IMG/VR virus record: IMGVR_UViG_2778261456_000009
Coordinates: 1 to 39,770 of that record
Length of the DNA stretch: 39,770 nucleotides
Direction: 5' to 3' (one strand)
DNA from: a virus
Taxonomy: Duplodnaviria > Heunggongvirae > Uroviricota > Caudoviricetes
Below, one piece after another: positions 24,571-39,360 of this stretch (positions within the stretch are counted from its first letter, which is position 1; each line of letters opens with the position of its first letter). Below the pieces are notes generated by a model. That model ran no database searches, had not been told where the DNA came from, and worked only from the letters and a program-made list of their open reading frames with translations. The position numbers and the translations under genes are program-made.

Positions 24571-24726
24571 TTACTCCTCAGATTCGTAAGCTGTGAAGAC
24601 AGCGACCTCCGTCTGGCCGGTTCGGATTCGTACCTCGCAGAGGTCTTTCCTCGTTACCAGTGCCGTCACTATGACGGTTAAACAGATGACGATCAGGGCG
24701 ATTAACATCGCCTTTTGCTGCTTCAT
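24571..24726 (-). CDS. hok: Hok/Gef-family type I toxin
   Basis: 51 aa MKQQKAMLIALIVICLTVIVTALVTRKDLCEVRIRTGQTEVAVFTAYESEE, near-identical to recalled HokD/RelF and Gef; AAGGAG RBS. Confidence 0.85.
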   Translation of the reverse strand: MKQQKAMLIALIVICLTVIVTALVTRKDLCEVRIRTGQTEVAVFTAYESEE

Positions 24727-24783
24727 AGCCTGCTTCTCCTTGCCTTTCGGCGCGTAAGAGGCTAACCTACATGTGCAAGTCAT
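24571..24783 (-). CDS. mok: Mok-like in-frame leader ORF of hok
   Basis: In-frame 19-codon extension from ATG at 24783 (MTCTCRLASYAPKGKEKQA-), analogous to mokC/hokC in-frame arrangement. Confidence 0.4.
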   Translation of the reverse strand: MTCTCRLASYAPKGKEKQAMKQQKAMLIALIVICLTVIVTALVTRKDLCEVRIRTGQTEVAVFTAYESEE

Positions 24784-24972
24784 AGATATGGCCTCAGATT
24801 AATGTTAAGCGTCTTGCCGGACGCGTAATGTTAACTGGGGCTTTTCTCTATCTGCCTTTTGGTGTTCATGCCTGAGACAGATAGCCTCAAGCACCCGCAG
24901 CAATTCTACTTAACTCTCGCTTTACCGCAAACCGTTTTTACCCGATATGGGAATTCCCATATCGTAATGAAT

Positions 24973-29437: not shown

Positions 29438-30568
29438 TTACCCCCTGAAGCCTGGCGGGATCGCACTATCCGGTAACGAGACGGTGTTAACCTGTCGGAG
29501 TAACGTCTCAGGTCGAACACCTTTTGGCGCGAACAAGCCCTGGTATTCATTGGCGATGCTGTGTCGAATCACCTGCTCAGGTGAAAAACCCTGCTGGCGG
29601 AATTTTTCCAGCTCCCGTATCGCCCCGTTAGCGCCCTGCTCCGTTCGAATTGGTTTTCGCAATGCCTGCCTGAACTGGACCCACTCATGCCAGAGTGTTT
29701 CCGGCAACCAATCGGGCAGAGCAACTGACAACGGGTCGAATTTTTTCTGGCGAACCGCCCCACCGATAACCAGAATTCCCTGCTCGGTGTGCCTTGCGAT
29801 ATCACTGCGCCGCAAGACACATATCCCGGTTTCAACAGCACCGATTTTGAGCAATGATTTTTGTCGTGGAGAATTTCGGTCAAGTTCGATCCCACACCGG
29901 ACACCGTTCCTGTCAGTCACGACGATATCAATCCGCCCTCCGCAGCCGTCTCCACGCTCTGGTACCGGATACTCACGACAGACATCCAGGCCAGCAGCCT
30001 GCAACGCCGCCACCGCAGAATTACAAAATTCTGCTGCAGTACCGCCAGACAATCTCCCCTCAAGCACTCCAGCCACAAAATCCCGAAACTCCCTTCCGGA
30101 AGGGAAGGGTTTGGGATGGGTTAGATCAGTATTTATATCTTCCTCTTCCTCTTCCTCTGGTAACGCTTTTTGATCCGTTTGTGTAACGCTGCCAGCGTTA
30201 CCTTTTCGTTTCAGTTCGCGTATTTTTGTTACTCGCTCGTTTGTAACCGCCCGTTTTTTAGAGCTTTTCCCGTTATGACGTTCAAAGTTAGGTAGAGAAA
30301 GCCCACCGTCATTTTCGACCAGCCATCCAACCTGAATTAACGCATCAGCAAAACCAGCCATAAAAGTGATGCGATCTATTGCACTTTTTGTAACGCCGCG
30401 AGCGTTACAATCTGCATTACCGTCTATCATTTGTTGATCCGCCCATGCCCAGAAGCGAATAACCTTCCCTAATGCGGCATCTGGATCAATATTCAGAATC
30501 TCAGCAAGCCTGAATATTTCCGGCTTATCCGGCGTAATAACCTCGAGCTTTATCCAGTTTGAAGCCAT
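29438..30568 (-). CDS. Replication initiation protein (replisome organizer N-terminus, DnaT-like C-terminus)
   Basis: 376 aa; acidic linker (EEEEEED); C-terminal region resembles DnaT-like domain of lambdoid O-type proteins; followed by DnaC-like gene. Confidence 0.7.
   Translation of the reverse strand: MASNWIKLEVITPDKPEIFRLAEILNIDPDAALGKVIRFWAWADQQMIDGNADCNARGVTKSAIDRITFMAGFADALIQVGWLVENDGGLSLPNFERHNGKSSKKRAVTNERVTKIRELKRKGNAGSVTQTDQKALPEEEEEEDINTDLTHPKPFPSGREFRDFVAGVLEGRLSGGTAAEFCNSAVAALQAAGLDVCREYPVPERGDGCGGRIDIVVTDRNGVRCGIELDRNSPRQKSLLKIGAVETGICVLRRSDIARHTEQGILVIGGAVRQKKFDPLSVALPDWLPETLWHEWVQFRQALRKPIRTEQGANGAIRELEKFRQQGFSPEQVIRHSIANEYQGLFAPKGVRPETLLRQVNTVSLPDSAIPPGFRG
30183..30201. repeat. 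19-bp perfect palindrome GTAACGCTG-C-CAGCGTTAC (copy 1 of 3)
   Basis: Read directly; inside initiator gene about 125 codons from its start; a related GTTAC-N10-GTAAC element lies at 30228-30247. Confidence 0.5.
30389..30409. repeat. Palindrome TGTAACGC-CGCGA-GCGTTACA (copy 2 of 3)
   Basis: Read directly; inside initiator gene about 55 codons from its start. Confidence 0.5.
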
Positions 30569-30580
30569 TTGTTTTCACCT

Positions 30581-30601
30581 TGTAACGCTCGCAGCGTTAC
30601 A
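30581..30601. repeat. Palindrome TGTAACGC-TCGCA-GCGTTACA (copy 3 of 3)
   Basis: Read directly; 13-33 nt upstream of initiator ATG (30568). Confidence 0.5.
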
Positions 30602-30645
30602 TTTAACTGATACCGAACAAAACAATCCGGCACGATTAATTTCAA

Positions 30646-31068
30646 TCAATGCACTACGACAGAATCGCCGGGCGACCCACCACCGCTGAAATGTGCTTTC
30701 CGGTAAACGGCCTGTACTGCATCATCATGCGCATCAATTGCCGTACTCAACGCTTCCTGCGCCGCCAGTAATGCACGGCGTTCCAGGGTATCGAAGATGC
30801 AGAGTCGGTGACGCAGCTCGCGCGGAAGAATTGCCAGAACCGCAGGGATGAGTTTCTGAATTTTTTCCCTTTGCGCTTTCGTTTCACCTTTCAACCAACG
30901 GTGATAGATATTCTGCTGATTGTTCCAGTCCTTGCCTGGTACAAGGGGCAATTCGCCGCCCCCCTGGCGCAGATATTCTTCAGTAATTGCGTTAGCGACC
31001 CACGCCTGCCCTTTTTCGGCTGCCAGGGCTAACAACACTGATTCGATGTGCTCATGCCTGATTTTCAT
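30646..31068 (-). CDS. ydaT: YdaT-like (CII-position) protein
   Basis: 140 aa, near-identical to recalled Rac YdaT (MKI.HEHIESVL.ALAAEKGQAWVANAITEEYLRQGGGELPLVPGKDW...); ATGA overlap with upstream cro-like gene. Confidence 0.65.
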   Translation of the reverse strand: MKIRHEHIESVLLALAAEKGQAWVANAITEEYLRQGGGELPLVPGKDWNNQQNIYHRWLKGETKAQREKIQKLIPAVLAILPRELRHRLCIFDTLERRALLAAQEALSTAIDAHDDAVQAVYRKAHFSGGGSPGDSVVVH

Positions 31069-31310
31069 GAATCAACCGCTCCTATGCTGTTTTCGCTATG
31101 CTTACCGTCTGGGGGGAATACATCGTCAAGTCCACAATGAGCACCAAGCCGATTAAGGGTAGAAACAATTTTTCTGCACTCCTCTAGCCCAGGGGTACGA
31201 AAATTTGCTTCGTAATTTGCCAGTCGGCTTTGTATCCACCCTAACTGAACAGCAAGTTGTCTTTGAGACAGCCCAAGCTGTTTTCGATATGTTGAAATTT
31301 TGTTCATCAT
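31065..31310 (-). CDS. Cro-like HTH regulator
   Basis: 81 aa with HTH (LGLSQRQLAVQLGWIQSRLANYE); AGGAGG RBS; divergent from repressor gene. Confidence 0.65.
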   Translation of the reverse strand: MMNKISTYRKQLGLSQRQLAVQLGWIQSRLANYEANFRTPGLEECRKIVSTLNRLGAHCGLDDVFPPDGKHSENSIGAVDS

Positions 31311-31329
31311 TACCTCCTGTTTCTATTAT

Positions 31330-31391
31330 TCACATTTCGTGAGTGAGATCAACTACAGATACGTGAGTACCGCCAATTTCACACATCGTGA
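31330..31391. promoter_or_regulatory. OR-like operator cluster with divergent promoters
   Basis: TCACATTTCGTGA (31330-31342), TACAGATACGTGA (31354-31366), TCACACATCGTGA (31379-31391), centres 24-25 bp apart; minus-strand -35 TTGATC / -10 ATAATA flank site 1; TAAAAT (31392-31397) 7 nt before repressor ATG implies leaderless mRNA. Confidence 0.5.
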
Positions 31392-31404
31392 TAAAATCGG
31401 AACT

Positions 31405-31794
31405 ATGAAAACGATTGCAGAACAAATAGGCGAGCGCCTAAAAGCCACTCGCCTAAATCGAGGATTAAGTATGGGAAACCTGGCAAAACTATGTGGTTGG
31501 TCAGGTTCTTCTCGTATTGCTAACTACGAAGCTGGCACCAGGAGTGTGGGGGCTGAGGATGCGATCATCCTCGGCCAAGTACTAGGCATTTCCCCCGCAG
31601 AATTAATGTTCGGTGAACAGGAAAACACGTACTCATGGTTAAATGATAACCAGAAAAAAATGCTAGAGCTGTTTAATCAGCTCCCGGGATCAGAACAAGC
31701 ACGCATGATTGATCTGTTCGAAATCCGTCTTCAAGAGCTTGATGAGTATGTGGAAAAATATCTAAGAAGCAGGCAACAGAAAAAATCCTCCTAA
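31405..31794 (+). CDS. CI-like prophage repressor
   Basis: 130 aa from first ATG; N-terminal HTH (RGLSMGNLAKLCGWSGSSRIANYEAG); divergent to cro-like gene; followed by strong terminator. Confidence 0.7.
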   Translation: MKTIAEQIGERLKATRLNRGLSMGNLAKLCGWSGSSRIANYEAGTRSVGAEDAIILGQVLGISPAELMFGEQENTYSWLNDNQKKMLELFNQLPGSEQARMIDLFEIRLQELDEYVEKYLRSRQQKKSS

Positions 31795-31825
31795 ACCTTT
31801 AATCTCCCTCGATTCCAATCAAAAA

Positions 31826-31853
31826 GCTCTCGCTATTAGCGAGGGCTTTTTTT
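31826..31853 (+). terminator. Intrinsic terminator of repressor gene
   Basis: GCTCTCGCT-ATT-AGCGAGGGC followed by TTTTTTTG. Confidence 0.65.
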
Positions 31854-31882
31854 GTCCATCAAAAATCCAAAAACAACATTGC

Positions 31883-31919
31883 TCACATATTGAGTTGACA
31901 AATCACTCACGATATGTGA
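31883..31919. promoter_or_regulatory. OL-like operator pair with -35 hexamer (candidate early-left promoter)
   Basis: TCACATATTGAGT (31883-31895) and TCACGATATGTGA (31907-31919) flank TTGACA (31895-31900); outer 10-bp arms GCTCACATAT / ATATGTGAGC are exact reverse complements; -10 not convincing. Confidence 0.4.
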
Positions 31920-32098
31920 GCATTTGTCATATCCAAACAACGCCCCACCAGAGAACGGCAGGACAATACCTCGAGTTATCCAGCCACTGAACAGGGCTAA
32001 GTAGCCAGCCTGAGGCATACGAACATGACGGCAGTTGTTGATTGATACAAAGCGCAGTAGATAAAACGTTCCGCCACCCGGCGTTAAGGGGAAAAAAG

Positions 32099-32317
32099 AT
32101 GGTTGGTGAAGATCTGGTTGTTATTAACGGTCAATTGTGCAGCAAAGATGTGGCAGCCATGCTTATTAGCAAGGTTCTTCCAACTGTGCTGGAGGTCATT
32201 GCAGAAAAAGTAAAGGCTGGTCGTCCAGACAAGGAAGTTGAAGAGGCGGCAAAAACAGTTGTTCATGCCGCTACAGAAGCAATTATTTTGAAGAGCCTAG
32301 TTTCGCCCAAGCCTTAA
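32099..32317 (+). CDS. Hypothetical early-left protein
   Basis: 72 aa from ATG at 32099 preceded by AAGGGG; first ORF after OL-like region. Confidence 0.4.
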   Translation: MVGEDLVVINGQLCSKDVAAMLISKVLPTVLEVIAEKVKAGRPDKEVEEAAKTVVHAATEAIILKSLVSPKP

Positions 32318-32477
32318 GTGAATCGGCGCTTTTTTTAGCATCACGTTCATTGAGTAGTGACAAAAACTCATTCTCAGCATTCTCGATTTCCGAGAAAAAT
32401 TCTTGATGAGTTGTTTCTCGCTGCGATCTGATGCTGAAAGCTAAAGCAAGTAGCCAGGCTTTGTCTTTATTATCCAT
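32283..32477 (-). CDS. Hypothetical protein (weak call)
   Basis: 64-aa antisense-oriented ORF in early-left region; no strong RBS checked. Confidence 0.2.
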   Translation of the reverse strand: MDNKDKAWLLALAFSIRSQRETTHQEFFSEIENAENEFLSLLNERDAKKSADSLKAWAKLGSSK

Positions 32478-32872
32478 AGGAATACCTTATTACTGGTTGT
32501 GTGAGAACTCCAGTATACCACCGAGCCTGAAGTGGTAAAAAGACAGGCGCACAACACGAAGGCGCATTTCCGGTATTCATAAAGAGTCGGTCTTGTCTGT
32601 TAAATTTAAATGGTGGGAGTGCGCCTCCGGTTGTAAATAACGACATTGCTATGTGTAGTCTTTGGCGGCATCAGTTCTACTCCGTGGCTGCCCTGCCGCC
32701 CCTTTTTAAAGTGAATTTTGTGATTCGGTGAATGCGGCTAAGCGCACGCGGCACAGTTAAAAGCATCAGTGTTATGGGTGGATTATCCGGCGTTAATTGT
32801 TAACTGGTTAACGTCACCTGGAGGCACCAGGCACCGCATCGACAAAATTCATTTGTAAAAATGGAGATAATT

Positions 32873-37230: not shown

Positions 37231-37425
37231 ATGAGATATGACGATGTTAAACCATGTCCGTTTTGTGGTTGTCCATCAGTAACGGTGAAAGCCATTTCAG
37301 GATATTACCGCGCGAAGTGTAACGGATGCGAATCCCGAACCGGCTATGGTGGAAGTGAAAAAGAAGCACTCGAACGATGGAATAAACGAACCACTGGAAA
37401 TAATAATGGAGGTGTTCATGTATAA
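37231..37425 (+). CDS. ralR: RalR (Lar), restriction alleviation protein
   Basis: 64 aa MRYDDVKPCPFCGCPSVTVKAISGYYRAKCNGCESRTGYGGSEKEALERWNKRTTGNNNGGVHV matching recalled RalR. Confidence 0.9.
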   Translation: MRYDDVKPCPFCGCPSVTVKAISGYYRAKCNGCESRTGYGGSEKEALERWNKRTTGNNNGGVHV

Positions 37426-37606
37426 AATTACCGCCACTATTGAAAAAGAAGGTGGCACTCCTACTAACTGGATAAGATATTCAAAATCTAAATTAACGAA
37501 ATCAGAATGCGAAAAAATGCTCTCAGGGAAAAAAGAAGCAGGCGTTTCCAGAGAGCAGAAAGTAAAACTGATAAATTTTAATTGCGAGAAACTTCTGTCC
37601 TCGTGA
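37418..37606 (+). CDS. ydaC: YdaC-like protein
   Basis: 62 aa MYKITATIEKEGGTPTNW...; overlaps ralR stop by 8 nt; gene order as recalled for Rac. Confidence 0.7.
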   Translation: MYKITATIEKEGGTPTNWIRYSKSKLTKSECEKMLSGKKEAGVSREQKVKLINFNCEKLLSS

Positions 37607-39133: not shown

Positions 39134-39174
39134 AGACGCTTGCAACTAATTGATTTTAAATACAATTAAAAAGA

Positions 39175-39201
39175 GACCGAATACGATTCCTGTATTCGGT
39201 C
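39175..39201. repeat. Hairpin GACCGAATAC-GATTCCT-GTATTCGGTC, with a direct copy of the arm at 39090-39100
   Basis: 10-bp perfect stem; AAAAAGACCGGAATAC at 39085-39100 repeats the left arm context. Confidence 0.4.
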
Positions 39202-39360
39202 CAGGGAAATGGCTCTTGGGAGAGAGCCGTGCGCTAAAAGTTGGCATTAATGCAGGCTTAGTTGCCTTGCCTTTTAAGAATAGATGACGACGCCAGGTTT
39301 TCCAGTTTGCGTGCAAAATGGTCAATAAAAAGCGTGGTGGTCATCAGCTGAAATGTTAAA

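Follow-up and report, generated by a model that had tools for sequence, protein, structure and literature searches.

A predicted lambda-like operator arrangement and a probably leaderless repressor mRNA in the immunity region of a Rac-backbone prophage

Genes and signals of the region

The locus described here lies in a 39,770-nucleotide stretch of phage DNA, the whole of which we call the window, and is organized around two divergent helix-turn-helix genes whose start codons, at 31310 on the minus strand and 31405 on the plus strand, are separated by 94 bp (table 1). The plus-strand gene encodes a protein of the DicA family that aligns with K-12 DicA over residues 1–125 (BLASTP, 29% identity, E 6e-15). 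Its link to PaaR2, for which the sequence was obtained by locating a published primer in an O157:H7 genome, comes from profile comparison only (hhalign, 92% probability), as direct BLASTP against that protein returned nothing. A Pfam search with the repressor found helix-turn-helix families only (HTH_3/HTH_31, which the divergent protein also matches) and no S24 peptidase (PF00717). The relatives that share its DNA-binding domain and carry PF00717 are 214 aa long, and these S24-type CIs align with the N-terminal 57% of the repressor only. In an AF2 model (mean pLDDT 89.5), the N-terminal domain matches the fold of the P22 c2 and 434 repressor N-terminal domains; a PDB sequence search and a fold search gave helix-turn-helix matches only and no solved relative of the C-terminal helical module, in which a LELFxxLPExEQ motif is conserved across the family.

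Judged by its sequence, the repressor belongs with the short, non-cleavable prophage repressors of the DicA/Gifsy (GfoR, GtgR)/PaaR2 class, with whose members it shares a length of about 125–140 aa, an N-terminal XRE domain, a C-terminal helical module, and the lack of an S24 domain or Ala-Gly cleavage site, and it is a remote homolog of PaaR2. Assignment to the LexA/S24-type CI repressors (lambda, P22, mEpX1) was rejected because the C-terminal S24 autopeptidase domain is absent, and RecA-stimulated cleavage would for this reason not be expected. Other repressors of the DicA/Gifsy/PaaR2 class are inactivated by a small antirepressor whose gene lies outside the immunity region and which is LexA-controlled in Gifsy and is Rem in Qin. 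No antirepressor PHROG was found among ten early/nin-region open reading frames between 21283 and 28713, and a search for the LexA box CTGT-N8-ACAG found none, its one-mismatch matches being at chance level.

The divergent gene, preceded by an AGGAGG Shine-Dalgarno sequence at 31313–31318, encodes a Cro-like protein that is 42% identical to the repressor in the recognition-helix region (GW..SR[IL]ANYEA). It is homologous to the cro products of mEpX1 and a Proteus prophage and shows no similarity to YdaS, CP-933P YdaS, or DicC. Across related loci, the operators and the repressor DNA-binding domain swap together and Cro stays identical. Beyond cro lies ydaT, at whose start codon there is a predicted site for the CII-like YdaT protein. 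This YdaT-box matches the footprinted boxes of K-12 Rac (ATGATT-N6-AATCAA; PMC11879457) and CP-933P (TTGATT-N6-AATCAA; PMC9986795), and the region is 94% identical to that of CP-933P over 32 nt. By analogy, a PRE-type route to the repressor via YdaT would be expected. On the other side, the repressor gene ends at an intrinsic terminator (predicted fold −19.8 kcal/mol, z −5.3), which may act in both directions, given the A-run on its other side.

Table 1. Predicted genes, promoters and operator sites of the locus, in window coordinates
Feature	Position	Strand	Description
YdaT-box	31058-31075	-	TTGATT-CATGAA-AATCAG; spans the ydaT start codon; predicted site for CII-like YdaT
cro-like gene	31065-31310	-	81 aa; XRE helix-turn-helix (Pfam HTH_3, E 6.9e-10); first gene of the PR operon
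PR-like promoter	31325-31352	-	TTGATC (31352-31347), 16 nt, AATAAT (31330-31325); reads into cro; O1 fills the spacer
O1 (OR1-like operator)	31330-31342		TCACATTTCGTGA; exact match; inside the PR spacer; center 69 bp 5' of the repressor ATG
O2 (OR2-like site)	31354-31366		TACAGATACGTGA; consensus matched by the right half (CGTGA) alone; center at -45 from the repressor ATG; adjoins the PR -35
O3 (OR3-like operator)	31379-31391		TCACACATCGTGA; exact match; center at -20 from the repressor ATG
PRM-like extended -10	31389-31397	+	TGaTAAAAT; TAAAAT at 31392-97
-10-to-ATG gap	31398-31404	+	CGGAACT; 7 nt
Repressor gene	31405-31794	+	129 aa; DicA family; XRE helix-turn-helix (1-69), linker, C-terminal helices 81-91 and 95-128
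Intrinsic terminator of the repressor gene	31821-31858		Inverted repeat; hairpin and U7/T7 tail; A-run on the other side
OL2-like site	31883-31895		TCACATATTGAGT; only the left half (GCTCAC) fits and is conserved; overlaps the first base of the PL -35
PL-like promoter	31895-31923	+	TTGACA (31895-900), 17 nt, TGtGAGCAT (31915-23); toward DicF-kil-recET-xis-int
OL1-like operator	31907-31919		TCACGATATGTGA; exact match; between the PL -35 and -10

Operator sites between the repressor and cro genes

The initial annotation had described three TCAC-N5-GTGA palindromes spaced 24–25 bp apart between the divergent genes and had proposed a scan of the whole window with this 13-mer. That scan finds 3 exact copies in 39.8 kb, all within the immunity region, against 0.61 expected from dinucleotide shuffles. 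Only two of them, O1 and O3, lie between the divergent genes, whereas the middle site, O2, is half-fitting; the spacing itself holds, at 24 bp for O1–O2 and 25 bp for O2–O3, measured start to start. When one mismatch was allowed, 19 matches in the whole window compared with 14.5 expected, which is the chance level and gives no further sites, and a match of this kind at 32341–53 was set aside as no different from chance. In a look-elsewhere control, in which the two regulatory stretches (173 nt) were simulated and all 4-Nx-4 palindromes (x = 2–8) were considered, any such motif reached three copies in only 1 of 3000 simulations.

Comparison with related loci separates the functional positions from their surroundings. 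In an alignment of nine loci from seven genera, the CAC/GTG cores of O1 and O3 are invariant, and the other invariant columns are the GT of the O2 right half, the A of the PR −35, and the TA.AA of the repressor −10. Around its GT, O2 keeps ACGT(G/T), and its left half is not conserved. In all loci, O3 is centered at −19/−20 and O1 at −65 to −69 from the repressor ATG, and phage mEpX1 repeats the pattern of cores, −10, and 6–7 nt gap to the ATG. Furthermore, between the window and a Salmonella orthologue, all 24 half-site positions of this region are kept compared with 42 of the 62 other positions (p 5e-4); the O1 half-sites are identical and its spacer differs, and both the spacers and the stretch before the ATG have diverged. 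The PR −35 block (GTCAA) is likewise conserved across loci, and PR was the sole match in a sigma-70 consensus scan of 30900–32400, in which neither PRM nor PL was called. O2 and OL2 are conserved in one half only and may therefore not be genuine sites for a dimer.

Another question is which protein reads these sites. They could be mainly Cro sites or be divided between the two proteins, O3 being dedicated to Cro and the repressor recognizing determinants other than TCAC/GTGA. The observation that favors this reading is that an identical Cro adjoins two different sets of operators and repressor DNA-binding domains. In the second set, as seen in locus L022, O1 and the OL sites read AACAC-N5-GTGTT, but O3 reads ATCAC-N5-GTGAT, like the O3 of the window. 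The same cro is accompanied by this second set in 153 complete E. coli genomes and by the window-type set in 10. In both the TCAC-type and the AACAC-type sets, O3, the site nearest the repressor gene, keeps TCAC-N5-GTGAT. However, all the full sites in the window and in Salmonella (O1, O3, and OL1) have the same sequence type, and this type is found together with the repressor helix SGSSRIANYE; operator type tracks the repressor DNA-binding domain across loci. In addition, the CAC-N5-GTG core is common to all operator types and could be tolerated by a single Cro. We consider it quite improbable that the palindromes are mainly Cro sites or are divided in this way. That operator specificity in the family is split between the two regulators, with O3 serving Cro while O1 and the OL sites follow the repressor, seems to us unlikely, although it would have consequences. 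If so, immunity specificity could be exchanged through about 190 bp (OR plus some 35 codons) together with the OL sites, leaving cro untouched, and the immunity module would be finer-grained and more asymmetric than the classical lambdoid cI-OR-cro unit.

The repressor promoter and the PL-like region

As the initial annotation had pointed out, a TAAAAT hexamer stands 7 nt before the repressor ATG, upstream of which no Shine-Dalgarno sequence is present. The hexamer belongs to an extended −10 element whose TG is supplied by the right half of O3, and no −35 is recognizable (ACCGCC occupies 31369–74). The −10 sits 6–7 nt 5' of the ATG in every CAC-type locus, and the same gap is found in five loci with a different DNA-binding domain; it is the length of the gap that is conserved and not its sequence (CGGAACT in the window vs. 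TCCAAAC in Salmonella). Homologs have in-frame stop codons 3–9 nt 5' of the repressor ATG, and in the predicted fold of the repressor mRNA the first 7 nt, including the 5' AUG, are unpaired. The paaR2 gene of CP-933P has the same geometry (GATAAT, 6 nt, ATG), and its leaderless expression has been demonstrated experimentally (PMC8630535). The strongest racR transcript in K-12 Rac is leaderless as well (PMC9638921). We predict that repressor transcription starts with the A of the ATG or with a neighboring nucleotide. The proposal of a leaderless repressor mRNA is thus probably correct, being well supported by the conserved −10-to-ATG geometry, that is, by comparative evidence. A 1-nt leader is equally possible because the gap is 7 nt in the window and 6 nt in most relatives.

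Additional upstream promoters that give leadered transcripts are possible by analogy with racR. It is a different matter to suppose that the repressor mRNA is itself leadered and the TAAAAT incidental, with transcription coming from a more distant upstream promoter or from one of PRE type that depends on YdaT. Precedents exist, as three racR promoters have been mapped in K-12, two of which give leaders (PMC9638921), and CP-933P has a YdaT-stimulated promoter, PRE933P (PMC8630535, PMC9986795); moreover, the window contains a YdaT-box, and the consensus scan did not call PRM. Yet the TG-n-TA.AA element is invariant at 6–7 nt from the ATG in the nine loci and mEpX1, whereas the sequence between drifts and never contains a well-spaced Shine-Dalgarno sequence, and a leadered repressor mRNA without such a sequence would be poorly translated. 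In lambda, the PRE transcript adds to the leaderless maintenance transcript and does not replace it, and a PRE transcript here would supplement a leaderless maintenance transcript in the same way. This alternative to a leaderless mRNA therefore strikes us as very improbable.

Just past the repressor terminator, two related sites had been described at a TTGACA oriented toward a kilR-recET-xis-int operon. The position and the orientation are borne out, as the promoter lies 100 nt past the repressor stop codon and is followed by kil, ydaE, recE, recT, ralR, xis, and int. The sites fare unequally: OL1 is perfect, whereas OL2, 24 bp away, matches in its left half only. The core of OL1 extends to a 15-bp palindrome, CTCACGATATGTGAG (31906–20), and OL2 repeats the right arm of OL1 perfectly, in inverted orientation, over 11 nt. 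The PL −10 (GAGCAT) is weak and relies on its TG extension. The −35, the −10, and OL1 are fully conserved in Salmonella, where OL2 keeps its left half and not its right, and functional positions are retained in 22 of 22 cases compared with 36 of 61 for the others (p 8e-5). More widely, in 12 of 13 loci a TTGAC(A/T) flanked by operator-like sites occurs 85–150 nt past the stop codon of the repressor gene. Two of these cases, PL933P and Qin dicBp, have been validated, and the window shares their layout; an operator occupies the position equivalent to OL2 in 12 of the 13. DicF is located in the PL operon. The PL leader is conserved; it gave no Rfam match even at E <= 1 and no covariation.

We regard as practically untenable the reading in which the inverted repeats arose by chance or act in RNA, as hairpins or terminators, and not as sites of protein binding. 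OL1 in particular was rejected as a hairpin or terminator: a terminator scan did flag CTCACGATATGTGAG as a hairpin followed by a T-rich stretch, but its 6-bp stem, 3-nt loop, and poor T tract make a weak terminator that lies upstream of the predicted PL start, the preservation of half-sites with variable spacers is the reverse of what is expected if the loop of a stem-loop alone were selected, and the sites cluster far beyond chance.

A probable immunity switch and its relatives

The locus has the features of lambdoid CI/Cro-type switches, namely divergent helix-turn-helix genes, three related sites over both promoters, and a second cluster at PL. It is most probably the lysis/lysogeny (immunity) switch of a lambdoid prophage with a Rac backbone and an immunity cassette of the DicA family. 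The lambda-like OR/OL structure that the initial annotation read from the region appears well supported by the comparative evidence, that is, by the aligned loci, mEpX1, and Salmonella. From the sites, their geometry and conservation, and the protein homologies, we infer the following scheme. A repressor dimer would bind the 13-bp (T)CAC-N5-GTG(A) operators, with the two-helix C-terminal module serving for oligomerization. By occupying O1 within the PR spacer together with the weak O2 beside the PR −35, it would block cro, ydaT, and the replication genes. With its center at −45, O2 would be in a position to help the repressor promoter, which has an extended −10 and lacks a −35, and O3, which overlaps that extended −10, would allow high levels of repressor to shut the repressor promoter. 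The repressor mRNA would start at the AUG or within 1–2 nt of it. At OL, the perfect site between −35 and −10 and the upstream half-site would repress the DicF-kil-recET-xis-int operon. The 24–25 bp spacing and the PaaR2-like C-terminal module together suggest cooperative binding and, possibly, looping between OR and OL, which are 577 bp apart. Cro, with its similar recognition helix, would be expected to use these sites too, preferring them in the opposite order, and YdaT at its box would supply a CII-like establishment input. The lambda-like role of Cro may not carry over, because YdaS does not repress racR (PMC9638921).

This reading provides a testable operator and promoter map for an uncharacterized immunity specificity that E. 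coli and Salmonella prophages with a Rac backbone share with a deposited phage genome. It can guide annotation in the choice of start codon, in the placing of regulatory sites, and on the question of how kil and DicF, both toxic, are controlled. The locus reveals no new regulatory principle and illustrates how lambdoid immunity evolves via the exchange of small modules. A literature search on the repressor accession, phage vB_Apl-pPE4, and the mEpX1 operators found nothing relevant.

The resemblance to lambda itself is close. In both, the divergent repressor and cro genes are separated by a region with three operators at intervals of about 24 bp, the middle site being the weakest, and the site centers in the window are within 1–3 bp of those of lambda relative to the two starts. 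The consensus operator of lambda also contains TCAC-N5-GTGA. The cI mRNA is leaderless, as the repressor mRNA in the window is predicted to be, and a second operator set is found at PL past the repressor gene. However, lambda has three OL operators, whereas one full and one half site are visible in the window, and YdaT takes the place of CII. The cI/cro/OR modules of mEpX1, VT1-Sakai, and Proteus prophages have DNA-binding domains that are 58–63% identical to that of the window repressor, and their cro genes are homologous. Their OR also has xCAC-N5-GTGx at O1 and O3 and a half-site O2, and their −10 lies six nt before the ATG. In these repressors, however, a C-terminal S24 peptidase (214–215 aa proteins, presumably SOS-cleavable) replaces the DicA/PaaR2-type helices.

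K-12 Rac and the window share a common backbone, with YdaT 95% identical to the K-12 protein and kil, ydaE, recE, recT, and ralR present. The logic is common to both as well: the divergent genes are separated by three operators that are inverted repeats, the repressor transcript is leaderless (by prediction in the window), and a YdaT-box covers the ydaT ATG. In contrast, positions 31075–31940, comprising cro, OR, the repressor gene, and OL/PL, are nonhomologous to K-12 Rac. Orthology with RacR and YdaS was rejected, as BLASTP gave no alignment at E <= 100 for the repressor or for Cro. The RacR operators, (T/A)TAGGC-n3-GCCTA(T/A), are unlike TCAC-N5-GTGA; TAGGC-N3-GCCTA occurs nowhere in the window, and one N4 version, at 31427–40 inside the repressor reading frame, is not conserved in orthologues.

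The Qin dicA-dicC-dicBp region of K-12, described as a lambda-like, CI/Cro-like bistable switch (PMC10448788), encodes the full-length homolog DicA. Qin dicBp, like PL in the window, has one operator just 5' of TTGAC and another between −35 and −10, and DicF lies in the repressed operon of both. The differences are that DicC is unrelated to Cro, that the Qin operators are GTTAG-type, and that the repressed operon carries dicB in Qin and Rac-type kil-recET-xis-int in the window. In addition, Qin has an antirepressor, Rem, that inactivates DicA, whereas the screened open reading frames of the window included nothing Rem-like.

CP-933P (Sp12) of E. coli O157:H7 offers a close parallel in layout. 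It too encodes a short repressor that lacks an S24 domain, in which a helix-turn-helix at the N terminus is joined to a helical module at the C terminus, and its cro-like gene is likewise divergent, the intergenic region measuring 94–97 bp in the two. Both promoters carry repeated operators, and a PL analogue, also provided with operators, comes directly after the repressor operon. YdaT, its box, the PL leader, and the downstream DicF are conserved. Nonetheless, neither the repressors nor the Cro proteins have BLASTP-detectable similarity, the operators are unrelated (GTTTAGTAA-type repeats vs. TCAC-N5-GTGA), and paaA2-parE2 follows the CP-933P repressor gene, whereas that of the window is monocistronic and ends at its terminator. 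The supposition that this organization was undefined for Rac-type immunity regions was mistaken, since RacR operators O1–O3 and the leaderless PracR3 transcript have been mapped in K-12 Rac (PMC9638921), and the leaderless paaR2 transcript, OR1–3, and PL933P with OL1–3 have been mapped in CP-933P by 5' RACE, N-terminal sequencing, footprinting, and reporter fusions (Jurenas et al. 2021, PMC8630535). Because OR regions with three operators are thus known from the RacR and PaaR2 systems, and PL-type promoters under repressor control from those of PaaR2 and DicA, the organization is not novel, and the locus represents a new immunity specificity of known design.

Predicted operator sites and their conservation

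The 39,770-bp window has exactly three copies of the palindrome TCAC-N5-GTGA, whereas dinucleotide shuffles give an expectation of 0.61, and all three copies lie inside two short regulatory stretches: O1 and O3 in the intergenic region (31311-31404) between the divergent cro-like and repressor genes, and OL1 beyond the repressor terminator. When one mismatch is allowed, additional matches elsewhere in the window are at chance level only. In a look-elsewhere control that covered all 4-Nx-4 palindromes (x = 2-8) and simulated both stretches (173 nt) with local composition, at least one motif in three copies appeared in 1 of 3000 simulations. The initial annotation had described three intergenic palindromes and two related sites flanking TTGACA. 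The exact sites and the spacing in OR (24 and 25 bp) hold, and the OL spacing is 24 bp, but the third intergenic site, O2, is degenerate, and each of O2 and OL2 is intact in one half only.

Features of the immunity region and other elements in the window
Feature	Position	Strand	Remarks
sok antitoxin	24721-24896	-	Rfam
Replication-initiator-like ORF	29438-30568	-	376 aa
YdaT-box	31058-31075	-	TTGATT-CATGAA-AATCAG, across ydaT start codon
cro-like gene	31310-31065	-	81 aa, XRE-type helix-turn-helix
PR-like promoter into cro		-	TTGATC, 16 nt, AATAAT; O1 fills spacer
O1	31330-31342		TCAC-N5-GTGA
O2	31354-31366		TACAGATACGTGA; right half alone intact
O3	31379-31391		TCAC-N5-GTGA
PRM-like extended -10	31392-31397	+	TAAAAT, TGa ahead
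Stretch from TAAAAT to repressor ATG (31405)		+	7 nt, without Shine-Dalgarno
Repressor gene	31405-31794	+	129 aa, XRE-type helix-turn-helix
Strong terminator	31821-31858		-19.8 kcal/mol, z -5.3
OL2	31883-31895		TCACATATTGAGT; left half alone intact; upstream of TTGACA
PL-like promoter	31895-31900 (TTGACA)	+	TTGACA, 17 nt, TGtGAGCAT
OL1	31907-31919		TCAC-N5-GTGA
DicF sRNA (RF00039)	32650-32701	+	Rfam 60.9 bits; ~720 nt downstream of PL-like promoter
RalA antitoxin sRNA	37424-37602	-	Rfam
SraC/RyeA with SdsR/RyeB	39164-39308	+/-	Rfam

Related loci were gathered from genomes, exact-protein look-ups, and annotated records, and for nine of them, which represent seven genera, the stretch between cro and the repressor gene was aligned. 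The columns without variation are those for CAC and GTG in the cores of both O1 and O3, for GT in the O2 right half, for the A in the PR -35 block (GTCAA), for T-A-x-A-A in the -10 element beside O3, and for the ATG. Every locus has O3 centered at -19/-20 and O1 at -65 to -69 from the ATG, and phage mEpX1 has the same layout. Between the window and a Salmonella orthologue (84% repressor identity), 24/24 half-site positions are kept, as against 42/62 for the rest of the intergenic region (p = 5e-4), whereas the operator spacers have diverged (ACATC versus GTAGC in O3), as have the 7 nt that precede the ATG (CGGAACT in the window, TCCAAAC in Salmonella). This is the pattern that would be expected of dimer-binding sites and of a start region that lacks a ribosome-binding site. 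At the other promoter, the OL2 left half, the whole of OL1, and the PL -35 and -10 are kept at 22/22 positions in the same comparison, versus 36/61 elsewhere (p = 8e-5). In 12 of 13 loci, including the experimentally validated PL933P, a TTGAC(A/T) lies 85-150 nt past the repressor stop; its upstream edge bears an operator-like site, and a second such site lies between -35 and -10. The dicBp promoter of Qin has this layout as well. Operator sequence goes with the repressor DNA-binding domain across loci: the recognition region SGSSRIANYE is paired with TCAC…GTGA, A(T)QSRIGNYE with AACAC…GTGTT, and PQ(S/A)VN(N/G)WF with TAAAC…GTTTA.

Repressor class and the exchanged specificity unit

The backbone is that of a Rac-type lambdoid prophage. 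Its YdaT shares 95% identity with that of K-12. E. coli Z1323CEC0011 has the region in identical form, and the genes that come after it there are kil, ydaE, recE, recT, ralR, xis, and int; this bears out the earlier proposal that the promoter faces a kilR-recET-xis-int operon. Next to the integrase gene come yebY and copD in Z1323CEC0011 and ryeA/ryeB in the window, which hints at a prophage neighborhood unlike that of K-12 Rac. The replication-initiator-like ORF is intact in the window and has no Pfam match; Z1323CEC0011 has two annotated pseudogene fragments in the corresponding region, and the stretch from 29695 to 30648 lacks homology to K-12 ydaU.

Homology to K-12 Rac DNA stops at 31075, where the YdaT-box marks the edge, and returns at 31941; the non-homologous block thus covers cro, OR, the repressor, and OL/PL. 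Orthology of the two regulators with RacR and YdaS was rejected, as BLASTP gave no alignment in either comparison. Instead, the repressor is a full-length homolog of Qin-prophage DicA (29% identity, E 6e-15) and, by profile comparison, a remote homolog of PaaR2 of CP-933P (92% probability, 101 columns). Its AF2 model (mean pLDDT 89.5) consists of a five-helix DNA-binding domain (residues 1-69) that superimposes on those of P22 c2, 434, and C-proteins, a flexible linker, and helices 81-91 and 95-128. The C-terminal module (LELFxQLPExEQxRMIDLFQxRLKExDEYVEKYLRGR) is strongly conserved in the family, where it is joined to at least three helix-turn-helix types; PDB sequence and fold searches found no solved structure matching it, and Pfam found no S24 peptidase domain. 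In its DNA-binding domain the repressor shares 58-63% identity with the S24-type CI proteins of mEpX1, VT1-Sakai, and Proteus prophages, and the Proteus mirabilis and mEpX1 loci combine such a CI with a cro homolog and the same three-site OR. Because DNA-binding domain, cro, and OR are common to both, the C-terminal domain alone has been swapped between cleavable and non-cleavable repressor classes.

E. coli Z1323CEC0006 (L022, NZ_CP148466.1) encodes a Cro protein identical to that of the window, and its flanks are 99.6% identical up to 31317, but 31318-31509 (OR and the first ~35 repressor codons) is replaced by a different set and its OL sites also differ (31880-31927). Judging from these sequences, cro lies outside the exchanged specificity unit, given that an identical Cro accompanies two sets of OR, DNA-binding domain, and OL. 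In L022, O1 and the OL sites read AACAC-N5-GTGTT whereas O3 is still ATCAC-N5-GTGAT; either Cro would tolerate both operator types through the CAC-N5-GTG core, or O3 would be its dedicated site. This cro is present in 162 complete E. coli genomes; 153 genomes join it to the L022-type set and 10 to the window type. The window cassette is rare in E. coli (10 of 5,426 complete genomes). An identical repressor, annotated as DicA, is encoded by PP818812.1 ("Actinobacillus phage vB_Apl-pPE4", 47.5 kb), a deposited phage genome that matches the window at 96.5% identity across 30641-32092 and carries recE, recT, kil, and ydaT genes of the Rac type. Attribution of this enterobacterial Rac-like phage to Actinobacillus pleuropneumoniae looks doubtful; if the record derives from virions, the window immunity type belongs to an active phage.

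Predicted transcription start of the repressor and predicted PL transcript

The TAAAAT hexamer 7 nt ahead of the repressor ATG, without a ribosome-binding site, was recognized in the initial annotation and is present as described. All CAC-type loci, and five loci with another DNA-binding domain, have a hexamer of the TG-n-TA.AA. type at a distance of 6-7 nt from the ATG. Homologs have an in-frame stop 3-9 nt 5' of the ATG, which excludes longer N-termini, and the fold predicted for the mRNA leaves the 5' AUGAAAA unpaired. The paaR2 mRNA of CP-933P, with a like geometry (GATAAT, 6 nt, ATG), is leaderless by 5' RACE, N-terminal sequencing, and mass spectrometry (PMC8630535), and the strongest racR promoter also gives a leaderless transcript (PMC9638921). 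Given the conserved -10/ATG geometry and these precedents, we infer a transcription start at the ATG and strongly favor a leaderless repressor mRNA, although a one-nucleotide leader is possible because the gap here is 7 nt and not 6.

Inside the repressor 5' coding region, TAGGC-GAGC-GCCTA and a further GCCTA (31427-31455, +) have RacR-type half-sites, with a spacer of 4 nt versus 3 nt for RacR. The palindrome occurs nowhere else in the window and may allow cross-talk with RacR in strains that also bear a K-12-type Rac; it is not conserved in the Salmonella, Pectobacterium, and Enterobacter orthologues or in mEpX1, and is probably a coding coincidence.

Over its first ~170 nt (31933-32104, +), the predicted PL transcript is 75% conserved with K-12 Rac and CP-933P. 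Blocks GGCAGGA..AAGTAGC..GGCATACGAA..GCGCAG..AACGTTCCGCC..GGCG..AAGGG are common to PL leaders of heteroimmune prophages in at least seven genera. This leader has no Rfam match and no covariation support, and may serve as a nut/put-like or processing signal. A DicF with 89-90% identity to those of Qin and CP-933P lies between the PL-like promoter and kil, and thus the Rac-type early-left operon here bears a Qin-like DicF.

Proposed switch and known systems

We propose that repressor dimers on O1 and O2 would occlude PR, and that O2, at -45, would be placed to aid the repressor promoter, which has no -35. The position of O2 resembles that of lambda OR2. Occupancy of O3, which overlaps the extended -10 because the TG belongs to its right half-site, would cause negative autoregulation, and OL1, between the PL -35 and -10, would block the operon with DicF, kil, and recET. 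The PaaR2-related C-terminal helices would probably give cooperativity and perhaps OR-OL looping; PaaR2 is reported to form octamers (PMC8630535). A CII-like input would come from YdaT at its conserved box, which matches footprinted YdaT sites of K-12 Rac (PMC11879457) and CP-933P (PMC9986795). This repressor class is known to be antirepressor-controlled (PMC3121763, PMC10448788); no LexA box was found in the window, and no antirepressor among ten screened ORFs between 21283 and 28713.

The searchable literature yielded no description of the window DNA-binding domain with TCAC-N5-GTGA operators, and this specificity is what is new here. The initial annotation considered the operator organization undefined for Rac-type immunity regions, but the switch design has already been worked out experimentally for PaaR2/YdaS/YdaT of CP-933P, RacR/YdaS/YdaT of K-12 Rac, and DicA/DicC of Qin.
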